From Acidimicrobiia bacterium (GTDB lineage Bacteria; Actinomycetota; Acidimicrobiia; Spongiisociales; UBA5794), in assembly GCA_029287195.1 (NCBI GenBank), contig JARFRN010000203.1:1-62482 (forward strand): a stretch of DNA of 62,482 nt, written 5' to 3'. The first letter of the stretch is position 1. Each line of letters starts with the position of its first letter. The notes beneath the pieces are model-generated. The model worked only from the letters and a program-made list of their open reading frames with translations. It was not told the DNA's origin and searched no databases. Below, piece by piece: positions 7,015 to 23,318 of the stretch. Both the position numbers and the translations under genes were made by a program.

Positions 7015-7032
7015 TTAGGAATCTATTCACAT
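7015..7032. promoter_or_regulatory. Candidate Rex operator (ROP-like) in the nuoA upstream region
   Basis: TTAGGAATCTATTCACAT is TAGGAA-N4-TTCACA, compared with the recalled Streptomyces ROP TGTGAA-N4-TTCACA. The right half is perfect and the left half matches 4/6. It lies 32-49 nt upstream of the nuoA start. rex is in this window. Confidence 0.3.
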
Positions 7033-11717: not shown

Positions 11718-12974
11718 TTAGCCCCCTTCGCCTCCGAGTAGGCCGCACGACTCCTCGGCAAGGGCTATGTCTTCTCCGCCGAAGGCCACCCGTTCGTAGA
11801 GCGAAACGGCGGCAATCTCCTCGGGACTGAGCGAGTTCTGATAGCCCGGCATGACACCGACGCCACCCACGGGCTTGCCGGTGTCCCCGTATGTCGCATC
11901 GGGCCAGTCGTTCGTTCCGATAGCCACCCACTCGACATGGTCGGAACAGGCCGAGAACGTGGCCAACACCGCACCCCCGGTAAACGCCGGGCCGACGCCT
12001 CCACCACCGCCGGCGCCGTGGCATGCCGTGCATTGGGCGTTGTAGATGGCTTGACCGAGGCTGAAGAACGGGCTGGCGTCACCGGCGCAAGCCTGGGCCT
12101 CTCCGGTCAGCGGATTGATGTCGAGCTGGCCCGACCGGCCACAATCAGGACCGTGCGGAGCCAGGCCCGCATAGAGGAGGGCGATCATGGGGATGAGGAC
12201 GAAGGAAGCGGCCAGCCACCGAGGGAACCCGGCGAAAACCGATTGCGGCTCTTCTTCGACGACGGGTTCCTCGGCGGCCGGCTCCTCCTCCGCCGCTTCC
12301 TGTGCTTCGGCAGTCGCCTCGGCATCTGCCTGCACCGCAACCGGCTCGGCGGCCGGCGGGGCAGGCGTTTCTCCCTCGGGACTCAGTCCCATCTCCACTA
12401 AGACTTCATCGAGTGGACGGCCTTCCCGCTTGGCGCGGGCTGCAGCGCTGCGCCGCAACAAGGCCTCGGGCAATTGCCCGGCACCACTCTCGGCGGCGGG
12501 TGCCGGAGTCGGGGCCGGCTCCGCAGGGGCAGCTGCAGGGGTGGGCGCAGCGACGGCGGAAGCGGCGGCTTCCCCACCCGTCCAGCCGGCGACCAGAGCG
12601 GAGACGTCCATTCCCGCCTTTCCGGCGCGAGCCCGAGCAGCGCGCTCCAGGAGATCGACGGGCACGTCGGTGTCGCCGGAGACCCGGCCCAACATCTCAT
12701 CCAGTGACCCACCGGCGGCGGCAGGAGCTGCTGCCGGTTCCGGTTGCGGAGCCACTGGTTCCGGCTCACGAGCTGCGGATGGTGCCGGCGCTGCCGGTTG
12801 CGCCACCGCAGGTGGTGCTTGCTCGGTGTCGCCGCCACCGGGTGCGCCGGCCCACCCCGCCACCAGCCCGGCTGCGTCAACGCCCTGCGCCGTGGCCCGA
12901 GCCCGGGCGGCACGTTCGAGCAGGTCGGCGGGTACACCGGTTTCCTCCGCGATCTGGTTCAGCAGTTCGTCCAT
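11718..12974 (-). CDS. Membrane-anchored mono-haem class I cytochrome c with three cytoplasmic HeH-like repeats
   Basis: The start MDELLNQ at 12974 overlaps the upstream stop by 1 nt (TAATG); the track ORF extension to 13244 is Arg/Cys-rich junk. Three N-terminal repeats (..VPxDLLERAARARA..). One TM segment (WLAASFVLIPMIALLYAGL). CTACH haem motif and GVMPGY Met ligand. Confidence 0.8.
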   Translation of the reverse strand: MDELLNQIAEETGVPADLLERAARARATAQGVDAAGLVAGWAGAPGGGDTEQAPPAVAQPAAPAPSAAREPEPVAPQPEPAAAPAAAGGSLDEMLGRVSGDTDVPVDLLERAARARAGKAGMDVSALVAGWTGGEAAASAVAAPTPAAAPAEPAPTPAPAAESGAGQLPEALLRRSAAARAKREGRPLDEVLVEMGLSPEGETPAPPAAEPVAVQADAEATAEAQEAAEEEPAAEEPVVEEEPQSVFAGFPRWLAASFVLIPMIALLYAGLAPHGPDCGRSGQLDINPLTGEAQACAGDASPFFSLGQAIYNAQCTACHGAGGGGGVGPAFTGGAVLATFSACSDHVEWVAIGTNDWPDATYGDTGKPVGGVGVMPGYQNSLSPEEIAAVSLYERVAFGGEDIALAEESCGLLGGEGG

Positions 12975-14935
12975 TACCTCAACCCGTTGATGTAGGAAAC
13001 AAGCGCAGCGATCTCGGATTGAGACAGATGCTCGTAGGACGGCATCGTCGACCACGGCCGATCGCGGCGCGGCTCGGTGAGCTGCTCGGCAGTCACGCCA
13101 CCGCGACTGGCGACATGCTTCAGATCCGGCCCCATTCTCGCCACACCCAGCAGGACCGGCTGCTCGTGGGCGTAGTCGCCGGCAACGCTCACGGGACCCA
13201 GTCCCAGATCCGTCACAATCGGGCGCACCGCCTGCGTATGGCAATAGGCGCAGCCTTCGCGCACGTAGATGTCACGACCGATGGTGACGTCGGCCCCTTC
13301 CACATAGATGCGCGACTCATCAGCCAGGATCGTCGGCTGGGCGGACTCAGCCTCCTGCGCAGGCAACACGACAACCATCAGGAAGACGGCGACTCCGGTG
13401 ACCAGGGCAATGGAGCCGACACGCAGCCAACCCGGCTCGGCCGATTCCGGCACCTCGAGTTCGACGTTGACTTCCTGCCCGCCGCCGTCCAGTTCGGGAT
13501 CGAGGGCCAATACGGCGTCACGATCCTCGGACAGGAACCACGCAACCGTGGCATAAGAGAACAGCAAGGCCTGTGCGACCGCAATCGTCATCAAGCCAAC
13601 CATGCGGGCGATCGCAAACCCATAGTTCCACATTGCATCAGCGGTCGACTCAAATCCGTCGCCGACCGCAGGGACGCCGTCGGAACCGCCGGCACCCCAG
13701 GTGAGCCCGGCGACGAGACCACCCGCCAGCATGGCGAACACGGCCACAGCCAGGCCCCCGAGAGTGAGCCAGAGGTGCCACTGCTGGACCCTGCGGGCAT
13801 CGGCTGAAACCATCGGCGGCGCTACGTGATAGACATACGCAAACAACCAAACGCTGAAGGCACCGAGCAATACGAGGAGCTCCGTGCCGTAGACCCAGTC
13901 TGTGAAGCCGATGATCCCGCCGGGTGCTCGCAGCGCCTGCCACAGGTTGAGCACCGGCAATGCTGCAAACAATCCGAGACCGAGGTAAACCAACCGCAGC
14001 GACGGTCGGTCCTTCTCCCTGACAACTTCGAGCCGACTACGAATCGTTGAATTCAGGTCCACGATGATCGTGGCGACCGGCAGAAGTAGAGCCATCGAGA
14101 ACATAACGCCGATGGTTTCCAGCCAGTCCGGGACTGCGGTGAAGGTGAGTTCGGCCGTCCCGGTGAATGCCCAGGCGATTCCGAGGCCCCAGAAGCCCAC
14201 AACCGACATCCGGGTTGCCCGGAAGTGGGCAAGGCCGACGAGACGCGGCACGAGGAAATACATCACACCGGCGCCCGCCGTGGCAAACCACATACCGGTG
14301 ATCCCCGCTTTGTAGAAGCCGGCCAGGAGTGCTGTGTTGATGCCGTGCAAGACCGGGGGTTGCGACCAGAACAGAGTTGCCAGCAGCGACAGCATCGTGA
14401 GATTGCCGATGAAGTGGAGCCCCACCAGCCAGACGACGGCGGCCAGCATGAACCACTCAGCGGGGCTACGGCGTCGTCCGTTGCGCCGCGACAGGGTGCG
14501 GGCCAACGAGTGCGCCATGGCCATCATCCCCAGCAACACCATCAAGTCGGCGAGCGGCGGCGCCTCGAGATAGCGGATGCCTTCGCTCTGTCCGGCGAGG
14601 ATGGCGACGCCGCCGATGGCGTAGCCGATAGACATCAGTATGAACCCGATCCGGGCGACGATGGGATCAGTCAGCTTTTCGCCGGTGAGACGAGGTACTG
14701 CGAAATACATGGCGCCGATCAGCCCGAGGGTCAACCAGCCGTACATAAGGAAGTGGACGGCGGCGGGGCGAAGACGTCCGTAGGAGATGGGACCCCAACC
14801 GCTGAGCAAATCGGCGGAGACGTATTGGACACTGGCAATAGCCAGCATGGCAACACCGACAATCAGGAAACCGAGAGAGGCAGCGAGATGATGACGGGCG
14901 ACGCTCTGCGAGGAGGCCGCCGTTTCGGAGATCAT
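12974..14935 (-). CDS. CcoN-CcoO fusion-like protein. The cbb3 subunit-I-like 12-TM domain lacks the canonical His ligands and is fused to a CcoO/FixO-like mono-haem c domain
   Basis: ATG 14935 (MISETAASS) has AGGA 8 nt upstream. CcoN-like blocks: YGRLRPAAVHF, AGVMYFLVPR, FWGLGIAWAFTGTAELTFTAVPDW, FTDWVYGTELLVLLGA. C-terminal CcoO-like blocks: GRDIYVREGCAYCHTQAVRP, ARMGPDL, STMPSY. Confidence 0.75.
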   Translation of the reverse strand: MISETAASSQSVARHHLAASLGFLIVGVAMLAIASVQYVSADLLSGWGPISYGRLRPAAVHFLMYGWLTLGLIGAMYFAVPRLTGEKLTDPIVARIGFILMSIGYAIGGVAILAGQSEGIRYLEAPPLADLMVLLGMMAMAHSLARTLSRRNGRRRSPAEWFMLAAVVWLVGLHFIGNLTMLSLLATLFWSQPPVLHGINTALLAGFYKAGITGMWFATAGAGVMYFLVPRLVGLAHFRATRMSVVGFWGLGIAWAFTGTAELTFTAVPDWLETIGVMFSMALLLPVATIIVDLNSTIRSRLEVVREKDRPSLRLVYLGLGLFAALPVLNLWQALRAPGGIIGFTDWVYGTELLVLLGAFSVWLFAYVYHVAPPMVSADARRVQQWHLWLTLGGLAVAVFAMLAGGLVAGLTWGAGGSDGVPAVGDGFESTADAMWNYGFAIARMVGLMTIAVAQALLFSYATVAWFLSEDRDAVLALDPELDGGGQEVNVELEVPESAEPGWLRVGSIALVTGVAVFLMVVVLPAQEAESAQPTILADESRIYVEGADVTIGRDIYVREGCAYCHTQAVRPIVTDLGLGPVSVAGDYAHEQPVLLGVARMGPDLKHVASRGGVTAEQLTEPRRDRPWSTMPSYEHLSQSEIAALVSYINGLR

Positions 14936-15286
14936 CTTGTCCTGAGAAACTTCGGCAGTCACCCTTTGCCTAGTCCCTTCCTCGCTTCGTCGCCGAGTCC
15001 GTCCGAGTCGGCAGTCCGGCAGAATAGCCCGGAGCGCCACAGATTCCCGAACTCGACTTGGTGGCCGGTTGCAGGTGGTGGCGTGACAGGGTTGCCGCCG
15101 GGGGCACGCTTGCCGAGGGCACCGCAACACATGCTTCGACCTGTCCCAATTTCACCGACGCGCAGAGGCGTGGCAGATGATTCCACGCCGCCGTTGCGGG
15201 ACCACTATGGTTGCGGGCAGCCGTCGGCTGGGTAGGCCATACGCGGCTTAGAATGGCGCAACTTCGACAAGATATGAATCGGATCG

Positions 15287-15895
15287 ATGGCTGAAGGAAG
15301 AGACAGGAACTTCACCCGAGGCGTCGCGGCCATGGCGATTGGGCTGGGCCTAGCGATCCTTGGTGCGTTGTGGGCGCATTTCGCCGAGCTCTCCGAATTC
15401 GACGAGGTTGGCCGGGAGATCTATCCGGCAATTCCGCGAGGCTGGCAGTGGGTCCTGCTCGGGCAGCTGGTATCGCTCGGCGGGGTTCTCGTTCTGATGG
15501 CAGGCATGGCGCTGGCATTCCTCTACGAGAAGAAGATGACCTGGGCCCGCTCCGCCATCGGGGCATTGCTCTTCACCTCACTGATGATCATCCTCTTCGG
15601 CGTCATCCCCAATCAATGGCTCACCTATACCCAGGCGGTGTGGGAGTGGACCGACCAGAAACTCTGGATACAGATCCCACCCGAGTTGTTGGGCGGCAAC
15701 GAGGTCAACATCTCTGCCGCAGCTTTGAAAGACATCATTTCGGGCACATATGTGCTCATTGCCACCGGTGCAGTTGCGGCCGCCATGATCGCCTGGCAGC
15801 GGCGTGACGAGCTCCAGGCCGCTCGAGACAAGAAAAGAGCAGAGAAGAAATCGGTGTCGAGCTACGGGCGGCCGCTGCAGAAGGTCGAGAGGTAG
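15287..15895 (+). CDS. Hypothetical 4-TM membrane protein (first gene of the bc-type operon)
   Basis: 202 aa with four hydrophobic segments and a basic C-terminal tail. Its stop is 2 nt before the ferredoxin gene. I recognise no family. Confidence 0.6.
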   Translation: MAEGRDRNFTRGVAAMAIGLGLAILGALWAHFAELSEFDEVGREIYPAIPRGWQWVLLGQLVSLGGVLVLMAGMALAFLYEKKMTWARSAIGALLFTSLMIILFGVIPNQWLTYTQAVWEWTDQKLWIQIPPELLGGNEVNISAAALKDIISGTYVLIATGAVAAAMIAWQRRDELQAARDKKRAEKKSVSSYGRPLQKVER

Positions 15896-15897
15896 GA

Positions 15898-16341
15898 ATG
15901 GCAAACGAGGCTTGGACGGAACTCATCGATACGCGAGAGGACTATCAGCTCGCAGCGGTCGACGGCTCCTACCTGACTGCCGCCGTGAAGCCCAAGCAGT
16001 TCCTCCACATCAACGAAGCAGAGTGCATCCTGTGCGAGGGGTGTGTCGACATCTGTCCCTGGAAATGCATCCACTACCTTTCGCTCGATGCTATCGAGGA
16101 AGCCGCCAACGTCGAAGACCCGAAGGGCAAGCCGGAGAATGGGGGGTTCTTCGTGGTCGACGAGGACGCTTGTACCCGCTGTGCTCTCTGCATCGATCGT
16201 TGTCCAACCGGTGTCATCTCTCTGGGCAAGTTCACGGGATCTGTCGCGGACCGCACCGGAGACTTCGCAGACAAGCCCTGGGAGTACGACACGGGCGACC
16301 GCGACTTCAAGAACGGCTATATGTACGGCGTACGTTGGTAA
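15898..16341 (+). CDS. 2x[4Fe-4S] ferredoxin-domain protein
   Basis: Two CxxCxxCxxxCP motifs: CILCEGCVDICP and CTRCALCIDRCP. 147 aa. Confidence 0.85.
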   Translation: MANEAWTELIDTREDYQLAAVDGSYLTAAVKPKQFLHINEAECILCEGCVDICPWKCIHYLSLDAIEEAANVEDPKGKPENGGFFVVDEDACTRCALCIDRCPTGVISLGKFTGSVADRTGDFADKPWEYDTGDRDFKNGYMYGVRW

Positions 16342-16366
16342 CAGGAAATCGGACTGAGGAGACGAG

Positions 16367-17143
16367 GTGGCAAACGGAAACGGAAGGGTCGGGCTGAAGG
16401 AGCGTTTCGCTCAGGCCGGCGATCACATCCGCACCAGCCAGGTGTGGAGCAGTATCTTCCGGCCCGGATCTCCATTCCGCCACGGCTACACCGACTCGCC
16501 GCGTAACCGATCCTACGTCATCATGAACAACGTGCTGTATCACCTTCATCCGGTGAAGGTGAAGAGGCACGCCGTCCGTCTCTCCTATACCTTGTGTCTC
16601 GGCGGGCTGAGCTTCTTCCTATTCATCTTGCTGACGATTACCGGCATCTTCCTGATGTTCTACTACCGGCCGACCTCGCCTCAGGCCTATCTCGATATCC
16701 AGGCCCTGTCTACAGACGTAGCCTTCGGGCAGTTGGTGCGCAATATGCACCGTTGGGGTGCCCACCTGATGGTTCTCACCGTGTTTCTCCACATGGCCCG
16801 GGTCTTCTACCACGGTGCCTACAAACCGCCGCGCGAGTTCAACTGGGTCGTCGGAATCGTCCTATTGGTCTTGACCCTGCTGCTTTCGTTCACCGGTTAC
16901 CTGCTGCCGTGGGATCAGCTGGCACTGTGGGCAGTGACGGTCGGTAGCAATATGGGTGCATATGCGCCGGTGATCGGCGATCAAGTGTCGTTTGCCCTGA
17001 TCGGGGGCGTCCAGATCACACCCGACACGCTGTTGCGGTGGTACGTGCTCCACGTCCTGTTCCTGCCGTTCATCATCGTCGTCTTCATGGCCGTCCACTT
17101 CTGGAGGGTGCGCAAAGACGGTGGCATTTCGGGGCCGCTCTAG
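16367..17143 (+). CDS. Cytochrome b6-like protein (N-terminal half of a split cytochrome b)
   Basis: Four His in two TM pairs (NMHRWGAHLMVLTVFLHMARVF; WYVLHVLFLPFIIVVFMAVHFWR). LPWDQ motif. YTLCLGGLSFF matches the b6/Firmicutes CLGG cysteine that binds haem ci (Cys codon 16595-16597). GTG start after AGGAG. Confidence 0.9.
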   Translation: MANGNGRVGLKERFAQAGDHIRTSQVWSSIFRPGSPFRHGYTDSPRNRSYVIMNNVLYHLHPVKVKRHAVRLSYTLCLGGLSFFLFILLTITGIFLMFYYRPTSPQAYLDIQALSTDVAFGQLVRNMHRWGAHLMVLTVFLHMARVFYHGAYKPPREFNWVVGIVLLVLTLLLSFTGYLLPWDQLALWAVTVGSNMGAYAPVIGDQVSFALIGGVQITPDTLLRWYVLHVLFLPFIIVVFMAVHFWRVRKDGGISGPL

Positions 17144-18060
17144 TGGCAGGTCTTCCCGAACACCTGCTCCGCCGGTCGGCCGAGGCACGGGCCAAGGCCG
17201 AAGGACGTGACGTCGAAGAGGTGCTTGCCGAATTGAAGGGCGAAGCTCCCCCGGCCCCTGAGCAAGAGACTCCTGCGGCTGCTCCCGAGCCGGCACCGGC
17301 CGCACCGGCCCCCGAACCCACCCCCACCCGGGCGGCCGCGCCTGCACCCGCAGCCGGGCCGGTACGCGATTTGGAGGCCGAGTCTACCGGCCTCGGTGTG
17401 CCCGTTCCCCTGCTGAGACGGGCAATGGAAGGCCGCGCCCGCAAAGAGGGGAAGCCGGTCCCGGCCATGGCGGGTGCCGCCCCGGCCGCGGCAACGGCGG
17501 CACCGGCGACCAGTGCCCCGGCCCCTGCGGCGCCTGCTGCTGCGGCCCCGGCGATCCCCGAGGGCGTTACCACCCAGCGGCTGCTCACCGTCGTCAAGGC
17601 GGGAGCTATTCAGCAGGTCAAGTCATCACCACAGGACAAGGTCAACGTCTGGCCGCATCTGCTGGCGATCGAATTTGTTGCGTTGATGGTTGTCACTGCG
17701 GGATTGATCGTCTTCTCCGTGTTCGTCGATGCTCCCCTGCTCGAGTTCGCCAATTTCAACGAGCAACCGAACCCGTCGAAGGCTCCGTGGTACTTCCTTG
17801 GTCTGCAGGAGTTGCTCTCATACTTCGACCCGCAGGTCGCCGGCGTAATCATCCCCACATTCGGCCTGATCGGCCTCGCCATCATCCCTTACGTCGACAA
17901 GAACCCTGCAGTGAAGCCATCCGATCGCAAGCTCGCCATCATGATCTTCAGCTTCTTCATTTTCGCCTCCGCGATATTGACCACATACGGCTCGTTCTTC
18001 CGCGGCCCGGGATTCAACTTCTCGTTCCCGTGGGTAGACGGAATCTTCTTCGACTTCTGA
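17143..18060 (+). CDS. Cytochrome bc subunit IV-like (C-terminal cytochrome b half) with two N-terminal HeH-like repeats
   Basis: GTG 17143 overlaps the b6 stop by 1 nt (TAGTG). The C-terminal 3-TM part carries APWYFLGLQELL (the PEWY-equivalent Qo motif). The N-terminus has two copies of ..LLRRSAEARAKAEG.. separated by an Ala/Pro-rich linker. Confidence 0.85.
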   Translation: MAGLPEHLLRRSAEARAKAEGRDVEEVLAELKGEAPPAPEQETPAAAPEPAPAAPAPEPTPTRAAAPAPAAGPVRDLEAESTGLGVPVPLLRRAMEGRARKEGKPVPAMAGAAPAAATAAPATSAPAPAAPAAAAPAIPEGVTTQRLLTVVKAGAIQQVKSSPQDKVNVWPHLLAIEFVALMVVTAGLIVFSVFVDAPLLEFANFNEQPNPSKAPWYFLGLQELLSYFDPQVAGVIIPTFGLIGLAIIPYVDKNPAVKPSDRKLAIMIFSFFIFASAILTTYGSFFRGPGFNFSFPWVDGIFFDF

Positions 18061-18082
18061 TGGAAAAGGACTCAGCCAGAGA

Positions 18083-18931
18083 ATGAGTACAACAGCCATC
18101 TTTGTGATAGCCCTCATCGGAGGGGGGATCCTGGTCGCCGCCGGGATCTTCGCCGTTGCGTGGCGCCGCGGCCCGAGCGCCGAGCCCATCGTCGGTGAAT
18201 TCGACAAGGAAGCGGCGAAGCGAGATATGTCGGCTCGCCCGGCGCCTGAACCTGCGGTCACGACAGCTGAGGCCGTAGCGCCGGAAACGATGCCGGCGGA
18301 GCCGGTACCGCCCTCGATAGAAGACCAGCGAGAGCCGGTCTCCGCCGACGACCTCGGCGTAACCCGCCGCAAGTTCCTCAATCGCGCCGCGCTCGGCCTG
18401 TTTGGGGGCGGATTCCTCGGATCGCTCGGAATCGCCATGCTCGCCTTCCTGTGGCCGAAGCTGAAGGGCGGCTTCGGCAGCAAGATCAATGCCGGCCCGA
18501 TTGCGGCACTCCGCAGTCAGGTGATCCTGGGGGACGGCAGCATCAAGCCGCTGTTCTTCCCCGAGGCGCAGGCCTGGTTGGTCCCGATGGAAGCCTCCCT
18601 GATGCCGGGCAGCTCATTCGATGGCCTCCCCGTGTTGGCCGGGGCCGATGGAGGAGAAACGGGTTTGATGGCGCTGTGGCAGAAGTGCGTTCATCTGGGA
18701 TGCCGGGTTCCCGAGTGCGCCTCGTCGCAAGGCTTCGAGTGCCCGTGCCACGGATCCAAGTACAACTACCACGGGGAATATGACTCCGGGCCGGCTCCGC
18801 GCAACCTCGACCGGTTTGCCCTAGAAGAAGACGCCCAGGGGAACCTGATCATCGACACCGGAACAGTCCTCGAGACACCACGCGCGGTCGTCAAGACGAT
18901 CGCCTACCCGCAGGGACCGAGTTGCTTGTGA
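18083..18931 (+). CDS. Rieske 2Fe-2S subunit
   Basis: CVHLGC...CPCHGS cluster-binding boxes. Internal twin-arginine-like TRRKFLN after an N-terminal TM segment, in the style of actinobacterial QcrA. Confidence 0.9.
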   Translation: MSTTAIFVIALIGGGILVAAGIFAVAWRRGPSAEPIVGEFDKEAAKRDMSARPAPEPAVTTAEAVAPETMPAEPVPPSIEDQREPVSADDLGVTRRKFLNRAALGLFGGGFLGSLGIAMLAFLWPKLKGGFGSKINAGPIAALRSQVILGDGSIKPLFFPEAQAWLVPMEASLMPGSSFDGLPVLAGADGGETGLMALWQKCVHLGCRVPECASSQGFECPCHGSKYNYHGEYDSGPAPRNLDRFALEEDAQGNLIIDTGTVLETPRAVVKTIAYPQGPSCL

Positions 18932-20526
18932 TCGCATCACTGCCCCAGGTCATCGCAGTCGCCGAGAGCAGCGAACCCGTCGGGCCGAGCAACGTCGGTC
19001 TCGGCAGCGTGGTCTTGACGATTGCCGTAGTCATCTTCCTGGGGTGGATCGGCTACCTCGTCATCAACAGCAGGCGGAAGACCCGGCCTCCCGAGGAGGC
19101 CCCACCCAATCAAGAGTTCTTCATGGACGATGAAGGACTCGAGAACAACAGGCTCACCCGCGTCCTCACCGCTGCGGTGATTGCTGCCGGGGTGCTCGCC
19201 ATCGTGATGCCCATCTACTTCGTGAGCGAGACCAGCAGACAGGAGGCCGCAGCCGAGGAAATCAACGAGGACTACATCCACTTTGGTGAGGAGTGGTGGG
19301 TCAAGTTCGAGTGCGGCGCATGTCACGGTCCGGACGGCGGAGGTGGCGCAGCTGAGATCGTCGAGGAACGCTCCGGCCTCAGCGCGAGTTGGGCCGCCCC
19401 AGCCAACAACGACGTGTTCTTCCGCTACAGCGAGGATGAAGTACGGCACTGGATCGTCAACGGCCGGGCCGGCACCCCGATGCCGGCCAGCGGTCTCGAA
19501 GGTGGCGGCGCAATGACGGTGCAGGAAGTCGACCAGGTCATCGCATACCTCCGCAGCCTGCAGATCTCGCAGATGGAGGCGTTCGAAAAGGTAGATGACG
19601 AGGTAGCCGCGGCACTGGACAGGATCGCCGGCGGGGCCGCAACCATCGAGGCGCGAATCGTGGTAGAGAACGCCAAGCTGGCCGATATCGAGGATGGTCC
19701 GGCCCAGTTCGAGGTCATCCGCAGCATGCCGGATGATATCGATGCGCTGCTGAGCGGTCCGGGCACGTGCACCGTCGAGTCGGCGGCGCTGGTCGGCGCC
19801 GCCTGCGCCGAAGAGGGGCCCGATGCGGATCGTGACGGCCTCACCGACGACGTAGAGCCCGCCCTGACGGCACTGGCGCAGCTGGCCTACGAGACGCTGA
19901 CCAAGCGAAGCGTCGATCCGGTGACTCTGGAGGAGACAACGGTCTACGACGACGAATTCGACCTCGAGTTCTCGCCTACCTCACCGTTCTCGATGTCGGA
20001 TGCAACCGGTACGCCGATCCCGGACCTCGAATCGGCACGTGCCTTCATCTCTCACCTCGATACCAAGCATCTGGAATGGTCGCTACTCACCACCCGCAAC
20101 GAACAGTTTGCCGAGCCTGTGATCGACGGTATCGCATTCCTCGAGGATTCGCTGGAGCGTCGCGCCTGGGATGTTGATTTCGATCAGGTTGCTGCCGCCA
20201 CCGGACTGACGCGCACCGAAGCGGAGCGATCGGTTGGGTTGTTCAACGCGTACTGTGCGCGCTGCCACACCGCCGGCTACTCAGCGGGTGTCGAGTTCGA
20301 GCAAGAGCCGGGTTCGGGAGCGTGGGCTCCGGCACTCACCGACGGGCGTACGGTCGTGCAGTTCCCGGACGCGCAGGATCACATCGATTTCATCATCAAC
20401 GGGGCAAATGCCTCCGAACGTTACGGCGTGAACGGGCTGAGCGGCGTCGGTGGTATGCCCGCATTCGGTGCGGTACTCAGCCTCGAGGACATCGAGTTGA
20501 TCGTGAAGTACGAGAGGTCTCTGTAA
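18922..20526 (+). CDS. Membrane-anchored di-haem cytochrome c with a large insertion between the haem domains
   Basis: CGACHG and CARCHT motifs about 330 aa apart. One N-terminal TM segment. C-terminal GGMPAF Met ligand. The start is uncertain (TTG 18922 or GTG 18928). Confidence 0.8.
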   Translation: MLVIASLPQVIAVAESSEPVGPSNVGLGSVVLTIAVVIFLGWIGYLVINSRRKTRPPEEAPPNQEFFMDDEGLENNRLTRVLTAAVIAAGVLAIVMPIYFVSETSRQEAAAEEINEDYIHFGEEWWVKFECGACHGPDGGGGAAEIVEERSGLSASWAAPANNDVFFRYSEDEVRHWIVNGRAGTPMPASGLEGGGAMTVQEVDQVIAYLRSLQISQMEAFEKVDDEVAAALDRIAGGAATIEARIVVENAKLADIEDGPAQFEVIRSMPDDIDALLSGPGTCTVESAALVGAACAEEGPDADRDGLTDDVEPALTALAQLAYETLTKRSVDPVTLEETTVYDDEFDLEFSPTSPFSMSDATGTPIPDLESARAFISHLDTKHLEWSLLTTRNEQFAEPVIDGIAFLEDSLERRAWDVDFDQVAAATGLTRTEAERSVGLFNAYCARCHTAGYSAGVEFEQEPGSGAWAPALTDGRTVVQFPDAQDHIDFIINGANASERYGVNGLSGVGGMPAFGAVLSLEDIELIVKYERSL

Positions 20527-21038
20527 TGGCTTCGCTCCGCACACTCAGACAACGGTTGGTCGAGGACGAACGCGGACTGAGCGCCCTGGAGTGGTTTGGC
20601 ATCTTTGCGGCCATCGTCAGCATCATCGTGTTCATTCCCGCGGTGCGGTCGGTTTTGGGTGCGGCTTTTGATGCAACCCTCGGCCAAAAGGATGACAACG
20701 GCGACCTCACCGGCACCGCCATTGCCTTGCGCGGCATCCTCATCACCATCGTCTCGATCGTGGCGTTCGTCGGCACCGGCTTCCTGCTGCTGTATACGAA
20801 CCTGGGAACCCGCCTTGCCTTTCTCGTCACCGGAGCGGCAACGTTCGGTTGGATGATCGTCGGCTCGATACTGTTCGTTGTGTATGCACCTCGCGGCTTG
20901 CGCCCCGCCAACCTGCAAGGCCTGAATTCGTTTCAGATACGAATTCCGGCAATAGCACTCACTCTGGCATCGCTGATTCTGTTCCTGATGTTCGTTGCTG
21001 CGCTGGATCGGTACGAAAAGGAACAGCCCGAGATCTAG
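20526..21038 (+). CDS. Hypothetical 4-TM membrane protein (last gene of the bc-type operon)
   Basis: ATG 20526 overlaps the cytochrome c stop (TAATG). The protein starts MASLRTLRQRLVEDERGLSALEWFGIFAAIV... and has four hydrophobic segments. The track ORF start at 20322 overlaps the previous gene. Confidence 0.6.
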   Translation: MASLRTLRQRLVEDERGLSALEWFGIFAAIVSIIVFIPAVRSVLGAAFDATLGQKDDNGDLTGTAIALRGILITIVSIVAFVGTGFLLLYTNLGTRLAFLVTGAATFGWMIVGSILFVVYAPRGLRPANLQGLNSFQIRIPAIALTLASLILFLMFVAALDRYEKEQPEI

Positions 21039-22372: not shown

Positions 22373-22999
22373 TTAGCCGCCCAAACGGCCTTCGTAGTAC
22401 GCCAGGATCTGCAGCTCGGTTGATAGATCGACTCGGCGTACCTCGACCCCTGCAGGGCGTTTCAGGACCGCAGGCGCGAAGTTGAGTATCGAGCGCACCC
22501 CGGCCTCCACGAAGCGGTCTGCGACCTCCTGGGCCGCTTTCACCGGCGTCGCGATGACCCCTATAGACACGTCCCTGGCTGCAACGATGGTGCCGATCGT
22601 CTCATAGGGCTCAACCGTCAGGGAGTCGATTCGGGTCCCTATCTTGGTGGGATCGGTATCGAAGAGCGCGACTACGTTGAATCCCGACTCGTTGAACCCC
22701 GGGTACATCGTCAGGGCGTTTCCCAGGTTGCCTGCACCGGCAATCGCAACCCGGTGTTCGCGGGTGAGGCCGAGTTCGCGACGCAGCACAGCCCGCAGCT
22801 CGGCAACGTCGTACCCGACACCGCGCACCCCGGGAGGATCGACGTAGGAGAGATCCTTGCGAACCTGAGCAGGGTTCACTCCCGCACTTTCCGCCAACTG
22901 CTCGGACGAACACGTCACCTGGTCGGGGGCTACCTCGCTCACACACCGCAGATAGAGTGGAAGCCGAGCCACGGTCGCAGTCGGAATGGAGCCTTTCAT
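22373..22999 (-). CDS. rex: Redox-sensing transcriptional repressor Rex
   Basis: Motifs: ATVARLPLYLRCV, QVRKDLSY, GVRGVGYDV, IAGAGNLGNAL, SILNFAP. The start MKGSIPT at 22999 gives 208 aa. The track ORF extends to 23152. Confidence 0.9.
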   Translation of the reverse strand: MKGSIPTATVARLPLYLRCVSEVAPDQVTCSSEQLAESAGVNPAQVRKDLSYVDPPGVRGVGYDVAELRAVLRRELGLTREHRVAIAGAGNLGNALTMYPGFNESGFNVVALFDTDPTKIGTRIDSLTVEPYETIGTIVAARDVSIGVIATPVKAAQEVADRFVEAGVRSILNFAPAVLKRPAGVEVRRVDLSTELQILAYYEGRLGG

Positions 23000-23063
23000 C
23001 GCTGCGAGATTAGTGCGCCTACGGGGACGCAAAATCTCACCCGGCCGCGCCTTTGAAGCGGGG

Positions 23064-23318
23064 CTAGAACCACGCCCGCAACGCCGCTCCGTATGCCTGC
23101 CACTGGCTGATTCGTCCTTCTGCGAGGACGTTGCCGCGCCGGTTGAGGACAACCGGGATCCGCATGTTGTAGTTGTCCGTCAGCTCCGGCTCATCGCGAA
23201 TATCCACTGCGATGAGCTCGACTCCGAGCCTCTTGGTCGCTCGCTCCATGATGGGAAGGACCTCATCGCACAGACCGCAACCCGGCTTGGTCAGATACTG
23301 GATTCGCCGATAGCGCAT
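23064..23318 (-). CDS. Glutaredoxin-like (DUF836-type) thioredoxin-fold protein
   Basis: 84 aa with a KPGCGLCDE CxxC motif. AGGAGAAGGA RBS upstream. Confidence 0.7.
   Translation of the reverse strand: MRYRRIQYLTKPGCGLCDEVLPIMERATKRLGVELIAVDIRDEPELTDNYNMRIPVVLNRRGNVLAEGRISQWQAYGAALRAWF

Follow-up and report, generated by a model that had tools for sequence, protein, structure and literature searches.

What does a ferredoxin gene do directly in front of the gene for a cytochrome b6? The question is posed by contig JARFRN010000203.1 (NCBI GenBank assembly GCA_029287195.1) of an Acidimicrobiia bacterium (phylum Actinomycetota; UBA5794 in the GTDB lineage), whose positions 1 to 62,482 on the forward strand form the whole stretch of DNA analysed here, hereafter called the window. 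A gene for a 147-amino-acid (aa) protein with two predicted [4Fe-4S] clusters lies there immediately 5' of a cytochrome b6 gene. On balance, sequence comparison suggests that this protein is probably a dedicated iron-sulfur (Fe-S) partner on the cytoplasmic (n-) side of a Rieske/cytochrome b6c complex that would oxidise menaquinol; most likely it is a peripheral subunit bound to that complex, where it would serve as a two-cluster relay. The features on which this reading turns are as follows.

15898-16341, + strand: 2x[4Fe-4S] ferredoxin-family protein, 147 aa (Pfam Fer4 families, family alignments A1 and A2, substitution ratios, synteny with b6).
16024-16059, + strand: first cluster motif, C43-x2-C46-x2-C49-x3-C53-P54 (read from the sequence; invariant in A2).
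16171-16206, + strand: second cluster motif, C92-x2-C95-x2-C98-x3-C102-P103 (read from the sequence; invariant in A2).
16367-17143, + strand: cytochrome b6, 258 aa (Pfam Cytochrome_B, PDB b6 chains, NCBIfam ExtP equivalog).
16541-16597, + strand: invariant n-side stretch of b6, H59-L-H61-P-V-K-x-K-R-H68 ... Y-T-x-C77-L-G-G (alignment to 1vf5_A and others).

The open reading frame (ORF) of the ferredoxin matched Pfam Fer4 families above their cut-offs, and its two CxxCxxCxxxCP motifs follow the pattern of bacterial-type 2x[4Fe-4S] ferredoxins. A first-pass annotation, made from the letters of the window, had described a 147-aa di-cluster ferredoxin without a transmembrane segment 25 nucleotides (nt) upstream of b6, and its coordinates were exact: between the stop codon (16339-16341) and the GTG start of b6 at 16367 lies a spacer of 25 nt with a GAGGAG ribosome-binding site. 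Because the sequence has no hydrophobic segment, no signal or twin-arginine (Tat) motif and an isoelectric point (pI) of 4.4, the protein is predicted to be cytoplasmic, on the side of the b6 N-terminus and haem cn. The family is compact, with 125 members at E 1e-10 among 1.84 billion representatives. Its proteins are 113-150 aa long with pI values of 4.3-5.0, carry their own N-terminal extension of ~35 residues, and share in alignments A1 and A2 the N-terminal signature DY..VD..WL..VKPK and the motifs CPW.C and CTRC. All eight cluster cysteines were invariant across the phylum from 28% identity upward, and the gene was under strong purifying selection, with a median ratio of non-synonymous to synonymous substitution rates (dN/dS) of 0.06 in 55 within-genus pairs.

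Cytochrome b is split in this operon into a four-helix b6 (Cytochrome_B) and a separate subunit IV (Cytochrom_B_C). Residues 73-258 of b6 matched solved cytochrome b6 chains (E 2e-49), and Cys77 of the YTLCLGG motif (TGT, 16595-16597) aligned with the haem-cn cysteine Cys35 of 1vf5_A, 7r0w_I, 2zt9_A and 6rqf_I, which bears out the earlier match of this CLGG cysteine to the one that binds haem ci/cn in b6f. All four haem-b histidines, the ligands of haems bL and bH on helices B and D, aligned with ligands in the same four chains. The C-terminal R.RK..ISGPL was also aligned to solved b6 chains; the arginine of HFWR.RKDGGISGPL, a motif kept in the b6 of the family, falls on the b6 C-terminus and is a candidate equivalent of Arg207, among the n-side residues that hold the propionates of haem cn or face that haem. 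By alignment Cys77 is the equivalent of the haem-cn Cys35, and a covalently bound haem is predicted there. The stretch YHLHPVK.KRH...YT.CLGG was identical in every ferredoxin-linked b6 (about 90 loci, phylum-wide). The invariance of both cysteine and gene pair in these loci, together with the strong purifying selection, indicates that the pairing of ferredoxin and b6 is more than chance.

The core of b6 is about 50% identical to that of cyanobacterial and chloroplast cytochrome b6f, with the same Cys35, haem ligands and R.K..ISGPL C-terminus, and a basic n-side N-terminal extension makes the protein about 42 residues longer than cyanobacterial b6. Cytochrome b6f differs in having no dedicated ferredoxin subunit gene, in its PEWY motif at the quinol-oxidation (Qo) site, in its acceptor cytochrome f and in its quinone, plastoquinone. 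A long-standing proposal has ferredoxin or FNR supply electrons to haem cn during cyclic electron flow (PMC5600118).

Automatic annotation of this b6 would be likely to mislead, because the NCBIfam equivalog 'selenite/tellurite reduction operon b-type cytochrome ExtP', named for a Geobacter selenite/tellurite cluster, scored 307.5 bits against a cut-off of 290. The bc1_QcrB_actin model of the canonical actinobacterial bcc enzyme (QcrCAB) gave 115.8 bits, short of its cut-off of 500; it matched only this b6 in the organism's own genome (83% complete), and no other Rieske/cytochrome b enzyme was found in that genome. The b6 complex appears to be the organism's complex III, and as the sole complex III found it must run the ordinary Q cycle whatever the ferredoxin adds. 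Its Qo motif APWY and its CxGG assign the complex to the APWY clade of split cytochrome b, a membership that rests on these motifs and the ExtP profile score. That clade includes an Acidimicrobidae strain (Ilumatobacter), and none of its members has been biochemically characterised (Kao & Hunte 2014; PMC4122944). Geobacter ExtO/ExtP/ExtQ likewise have the APWY Qo motif and a CxGG in b6; unlike the operon here, the Geobacter ext cluster encodes a porin together with multihaem cytochromes, and its description includes no ferredoxin gene (PMC5877670).

We then asked how widely ferredoxin and b6 occur together. The order-level sample comprised 41 same-order genomes, including the unpublished G027 and G038, and the phylum sample 401 genomes, with cut-offs of E at most 1e-15 for the ferredoxin and at most 1e-60 for b6. 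An orthologue of the ferredoxin with 60-95% identity was found in 35/41 same-order genomes, each time directly upstream of a b6 orthologue. Among the remaining six, G024 had b6 without ferredoxin and five had neither gene; two of these five are less than 80% complete, and two others, both complete and of family f6, carry just the paralogous operon described below. In the phylum sample, the ferredoxin family was present in 157 genomes and b6 in 163, with matching tallies per family, some full (25-26/26, 21/22) and others empty (0/31, 0/28). The ferredoxin gene was directly upstream of b6 on the same strand in all 60+ phylum-sample genomes in which both places were compared. These counts include 13 unpublished genomes (G041, G057, G086, G126, G157, G184, G210, G262, G274, G303, G371, G378 and G426), all positive for both genes; with these removed the counts were 144/388 and 150/388, and no conclusion rests on any of the unpublished genomes. 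Conservation of the gene pair in relatives, by which the first-pass annotation had proposed to judge its claim, was thus found both within the order and across the phylum.

A scan of public species genomes matched at least 589 genomes, of which the best 80 loci were analysed. The gene order ferredoxin, b6 (65-75% identical), subunit IV and Rieske protein was found in 75/75 loci with enough downstream DNA, usually followed by a cytochrome c gene. Taxa among the best 80 were Acidimicrobiia, Nitriliruptoria/Euzebyales, Egibacteraceae, unclassified lineages and a few metagenome-assembled genomes labelled Frankiaceae or Mycobacteriales; the named records were Actinomycetota with two exceptions, the first an 'uncultured bacterium' and the second a 2-kb contig that had been binned as archaeal. 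The latter, L050 (2010 bp, labelled uncultured Methanomassiliicoccales archaeon), carries an Actinomycetota-type ferredoxin-b6 pair whose ferredoxin is 72% identical to that of an unclassified actinobacterial clade, and it is most likely a mis-binned contig rather than an archaeal occurrence.

This distribution bears on one alternative, that the protein is an ordinary soluble ferredoxin serving other enzymes and merely co-transcribed with a respiratory operon. Such a role would agree with generic database names ('4Fe-4S binding protein', 'ferredoxin', 'PreA subunit', 'NuoI'), with the lack of any specific NCBIfam match, and with Foldseek and profile searches against the PDB, which returned only generic di-cluster ferredoxin domains and no functional lead; the visibly unchanged b6 of genomes that have lost the ferredoxin points the same way. 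The top structural and profile matches after the polyferredoxins FwdF and MvhB were NuoI/NdhI, PsaC and PscB, members of the same 2x[4Fe-4S] fold class and peripheral subunits through which electrons pass between a membrane complex and soluble carriers. They showed no specific sequence kinship with the window protein past the cluster motifs, and their partners are complex I or reaction centres. A free carrier, however, is unlikely to stay at exactly the same gene position throughout several classes, nor would one expect it to have a family-specific 35-residue N-terminal extension or to be confined, as this ferredoxin essentially is, to b6-bearing genomes of the same families. It is moreover the sister group of a domain that lies covalently within b6-linked subunits. 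We therefore regard an ordinary soluble ferredoxin as improbable.

That domain was found through the best matches beyond the ferredoxin family, which among the 1.84 billion representatives were the C-terminal di-cluster domains of 550-615-aa GltD-like proteins. Relatives of the window's organism have a second operon in which a 668-aa protein (Fer4_20, Pyr_redox_2 and a C-terminal di-cluster domain) is followed by b6, subunit IV, Rieske protein and cytochrome c; it is located at L013:3549-7768 (G016:C7), and also occurs at L014, L015 and L016. The window's own genome yielded no copy of this operon. Residues 36-114 of the window ferredoxin aligned with the C-terminal domain of the 668-aa protein (34-44% identity, E 2e-14), and the alignment runs through the long insert that separates the two cluster motifs. 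Both forms share this C-terminal-type di-cluster domain and the gene position directly upstream of b6, and in a maximum-likelihood tree, which was unrooted, one branch (support 99/98) separated small and large forms. The b6 of the paralogous operon is 52-58% identical to the small-ferredoxin type. In the large-subunit paralogue of Acidimicrobiia, b6 lacks the haem-cn cysteine (YSW[FY]LGV) and the Rieske motif reads CPCHGSxF; the small-ferredoxin type retains both the cysteine and the Rieske Ser/Tyr pair. Judged from these alignments and its domain content, the 147-aa ferredoxin is a minimal stand-alone version of the di-cluster domain of the large subunit.

The large form has counterparts in the literature. 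Large NAD(P)-binding Fe-S subunits were already known in the same b6-type clade (PMC5600118, PMC12954380), with an architecture described for 'subfamily G' and Kuenenia complexes (PMC5600118). In anammox bacteria they belong to the Kuenenia stuttgartiensis systems Kuste4569-4574 and Kustd1480-1485, whose NAD(P) subunits are of the Kuste4570/Kustd1483 type (PMC5600118, PMC12954380). The earlier statement that a dedicated Fe-S protein is unusual in a bc operon therefore has to be narrowed, since the ferredoxin is homologous to the C-terminal domain of these known subunits; what is new is the minimal stand-alone ferredoxin, and not a b6-type complex with a cytoplasmic Fe-S module as such. The literature searched contained no account of a small ferredoxin as a subunit of actinobacterial b6 complexes, although published neighbourhood figures may already show the gene.

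Comparison with Kuenenia runs via the homologues in relatives of this genome. Like the anammox and subfamily G complexes, the operon here has a split b6 with CxGG, a subunit IV, a Rieske protein with the potential-raising serine, and a gene for a cytoplasmic Fe-S protein beside b6. Unlike them, it has the di-cluster domain alone, with an N-terminal extension of its own and without Fer4_20, flavin adenine dinucleotide (FAD) or NAD(P) (Pyr_redox_2) domains by Pfam, and a dihaem protein in place of a multihaem cytochrome c; its hosts are mostly aerobic-looking Actinomycetota, in which the complex appears to be the main complex III. AlphaFold3 models of the Kuenenia complexes predict an additional haem on the n-side between the cytochrome b monomers, with an arginine of the NAD(P) subunit (residue 511 or 550) at its side, and four Fe-S clusters form a chain from the extra-haem region to FAD (PMC12954380). 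H59, H61 and H68 of the window's b6 are no more than candidates for the counterpart of the histidine proposed as a ligand of that haem: the spacing from histidine to arginine is 204 as published for the Kuenenia extra-haem site and 188 (H59 to R247) here. Anammox Rieske proteins were measured at +303 and +335 mV, and potentials above +300 mV have been argued to permit a very low-potential haem bL and an exit of electrons to NAD(P) (PMC12954380).

The kinship with large subunits raises a further alternative, namely that the ferredoxin is a structural relic: a leftover docking domain of a larger NAD(P) oxidoreductase subunit that would stabilise the n-side of the dimer while its clusters pass no electrons. 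Homology to the large-subunit domain, an operon without a flavin or NAD(P) module, and the dispensability of the gene in some lineages all agree with it. Eight invariant cluster ligands and a dN/dS of 0.06 exceed the needs of a purely structural role, however, and the unrooted tree gives no derivation of the small form from the large, so that we attach little weight to a relic.

The remaining genes of the operon, which comprises seven + strand genes at 15287-21038 separated by gaps of 2-25 nt or overlapping by 1-10 nt in the ORF list, are as follows.

15287-15895, + strand: small membrane protein, 202 aa, four predicted transmembrane helices, pI 9.2, first gene of the operon (hydropathy).
17143-18060, + strand: subunit IV, 305 aa (Pfam Cytochrom_B_C, alignment to PetD chains, motif counts).
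18083-18931, + strand: Rieske protein (Pfam Rieske).
18922-20526, + strand: dihaem cytochrome c, 534 aa (Pfam Cytochrom_C and Cytochrome_CBB3).
20526-21038, + strand: small membrane protein, 170 aa, last gene of the operon (ORF list).

Subunit IV starts with a GTG at 17143 that overlaps the b6 stop (TAGTG), and has a long Ala/Pro-rich N-terminal extension. Its motifs are an invariant (W/F)PHL..E, which contributes an invariant histidine and an invariant glutamate (E177, 17671-17673), and the Qo motif APWY at 17782-17793, found as KAPWYF both here and in each of the 61 family loci that were scored. In a weak alignment to PetD (E 0.014), the invariant glutamate stands one position before Phe40, the residue near the haem in b6f. 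The Rieske protein contains CVHLGC and CPCHGSKY (18740-18763) with both potential-raising residues, Ser and Tyr, and the second motif is conserved in the family as CPCHGS[KR]Y. The dihaem cytochrome c is the likely electron acceptor of the Rieske protein, and many other loci have a homologue of it 3' of the Rieske gene.

The upstream 202-aa membrane protein, whose stop lies 2 nt before the ferredoxin start, matched no Pfam or NCBIfam family above cut-off. Its homologues lie directly 5' of the ferredoxin gene in other classes (L076, 28% identity, E 1e-8; L031, E 1e-3), and it is retained at L099 and L102, where the ferredoxin gene is absent; its conservation across classes makes it part of the module. 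The 170-aa protein, whose ATG overlaps the cytochrome c stop, matched no Pfam family and has homologues at the same place in L017, L018, L081 and L088.

How might the ferredoxin work in such a complex? We propose that the acidic ferredoxin would dock on the n-side, where the extended N-terminus of b6 would form a strongly basic face; the pI of 4.4 (4.3-5.0 in the family) faces one of 11.5 for the b6 N-terminus. Its two [4Fe-4S] clusters would link the haem bH/haem cn pair of the quinone-reduction (Qn) site, by way of a short relay, with a soluble cytoplasmic redox partner, and the relay would give the Q-cycle enzyme an auxiliary third electron port. Strict gene linkage, family-specific extensions, homology to a domain of b6-linked subunits and charge complementarity make a bound n-side relay the best supported reading; physical binding, cluster occupancy, proximity to haem cn and the direction of electron flow are what we infer from these observations.

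Electrons could pass through the relay in either direction, as the first-pass annotation had also allowed. Actinomycetota is a menaquinone-using phylum, and a Rieske motif of the high-potential type in such a phylum parallels the anammox case; for this reason we lean slightly, and tentatively, towards outward flow, in which a low-potential electron from quinol oxidation would go to a cytoplasmic acceptor, by analogy with what has been proposed for anammox. Inward flow, by which the complex would act as a ferredoxin:menaquinone reductase, is favoured by the intact haem-cn pocket and by the old chloroplast proposal, and seems to us somewhat unlikely. The broader idea that the ferredoxin makes the complex a three-port enzyme, either a quinol-driven bifurcase to a cytoplasmic acceptor in aerobes or a built-in ferredoxin:menaquinone reductase working through haem cn, is possible but rather doubtful.

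Several observations weigh against a bound relay. The ferredoxin family is missing altogether from five b6-bearing genomes: G024, of the same family as the window's organism, and G200, G213, G239 and G265 of family f65. A clean loss of this kind implies that the ferredoxin is auxiliary and dispensable, and the complex keeps its Qn-site residues, so that an ordinary Q cycle needs no ferredoxin. By Pfam, the operon encodes no flavin or NAD(P) module. An AlphaFold2 model of the ferredoxin alone, built on a 46-row alignment, had a mean predicted local distance difference test score of 58.7, with the core near 70. The only clean in-frame fusion of ferredoxin and b6, P0316 (407 aa, on a 2.7-kb contig of a Joint Genome Institute (JGI) metagenome), joins the two by a four-residue linker, ENNI, and is topologically consistent with both parts being cytoplasmic; it is a singleton that could reflect a sequencing error in a stop codon, and its AlphaFold2 model (predicted template modelling score 0.40) showed no confident interface between ferredoxin and b6. 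Other 'fused' ferredoxin-b6 proteins were rejected as assembly errors, recognisable by Arg/Pro-rich frameshift stretches.

The five losses also bear on a maturation role. A ferredoxin in this position might be an assembly factor that, alone or jointly with the upstream membrane protein, supplies for example the cytoplasmic reducing power by which haem cn would be covalently joined to Cys77. In line with this, every small ferredoxin is paired with a b6 that has CxGG, and the b6 of the large-subunit paralogue has lost the cysteine. The haem-ci maturation families CCB1 and CCB2/4 were not found in the organism's own genome, so that another system must act there if the haem is attached. The same models, however, found no match in the control, Bacillus subtilis, so that their absence carries little weight; the b6 of this bacterium is usually taken to carry haem ci, and its qcr operon is not known to have such a ferredoxin gene. 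In all five ferredoxin-less genomes b6 keeps CLGG and every other n-side motif, with the upstream membrane protein directly before b6, and the nearest relatives of the ferredoxin are electron-relay domains of oxidoreductases. A maturation factor therefore appears unlikely to us, and a bound n-side relay remains the reading that we prefer.

The N-terminus of subunit IV (17143-17560) and the cytochrome c of the divergent operon (11718-13244, - strand) have in common repeated basic helix modules (LPEHLLRRSAEARAKAEG-like), set on linkers rich in Ala and Pro. The basic helix module persists in ferredoxin-less lineages, so the ferredoxin is probably not its partner. A divergent gene resembling a COX1+FixO fusion by Pfam (12974-15130, - strand) lies beside the b6 operon in this order; other Actinomycetota clades have a normal COX1 gene upstream instead (L027:571-2439). 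Just 3' of the operon is a gene for a Rex-type redox-sensing repressor (22373-23152, - strand). A gene cluster 3' of the b6 operon was found in 24/80 other loci, and its one tested member (L072) had Rex-type Pfam domains. No Rex operator was found in the operon control region (14936-15286), and the single match in the window, at 7015, is at chance level.

The organism's own genome also encodes a 775-aa fusion of cytochrome b, 2x[4Fe-4S] and MvhD/FlpD domains (L108:2253-4580, - strand; G000:C239), just 3' of COX2 and COX1, and long ORFs resembling it are present in many relatives. Dibrova's subfamily H, said to consist of large cytochrome-b-domain proteins, may be its counterpart. The fusion differs from the window b6 in being a single polypeptide, with 26% identity in the cytochrome b part and no adjoining genes for a Rieske protein or subunit IV. 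Branches called 'PDWF-FeS', in which cytochrome b is fused to 4Fe-4S and MvhD/FlpD domains, have been described (PMC4122944); the L108 copy fits that uncharacterised type, and the operon here resembles it in wiring a b-type cytochrome to cytoplasmic Fe-S domains.

About four in ten of the sampled Actinomycetota genomes carry the operon. As it is so widespread and encodes the only complex III found here, a major unstudied type of respiratory enzyme would have an extra cytoplasmic redox subunit. The ferredoxin family would represent a minimal version of the anammox cytoplasmic module, which has so far rested on models alone, and a cultivable aerobic carrier would allow electron exchange between n-side haems and Fe-S clusters to be tested directly. 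Electron exchange between ferredoxin and an n-side haem has been a matter of debate in chloroplast cyclic electron flow ever since the discovery of haem cn, and the operon bears on that ferredoxin-dependent pathway as well as on quinol-based electron bifurcation. If the three-port reading is true, these would be the first natural, genetically fixed ferredoxin-type clusters in electron exchange with haems on the n-side of a b6-type complex.

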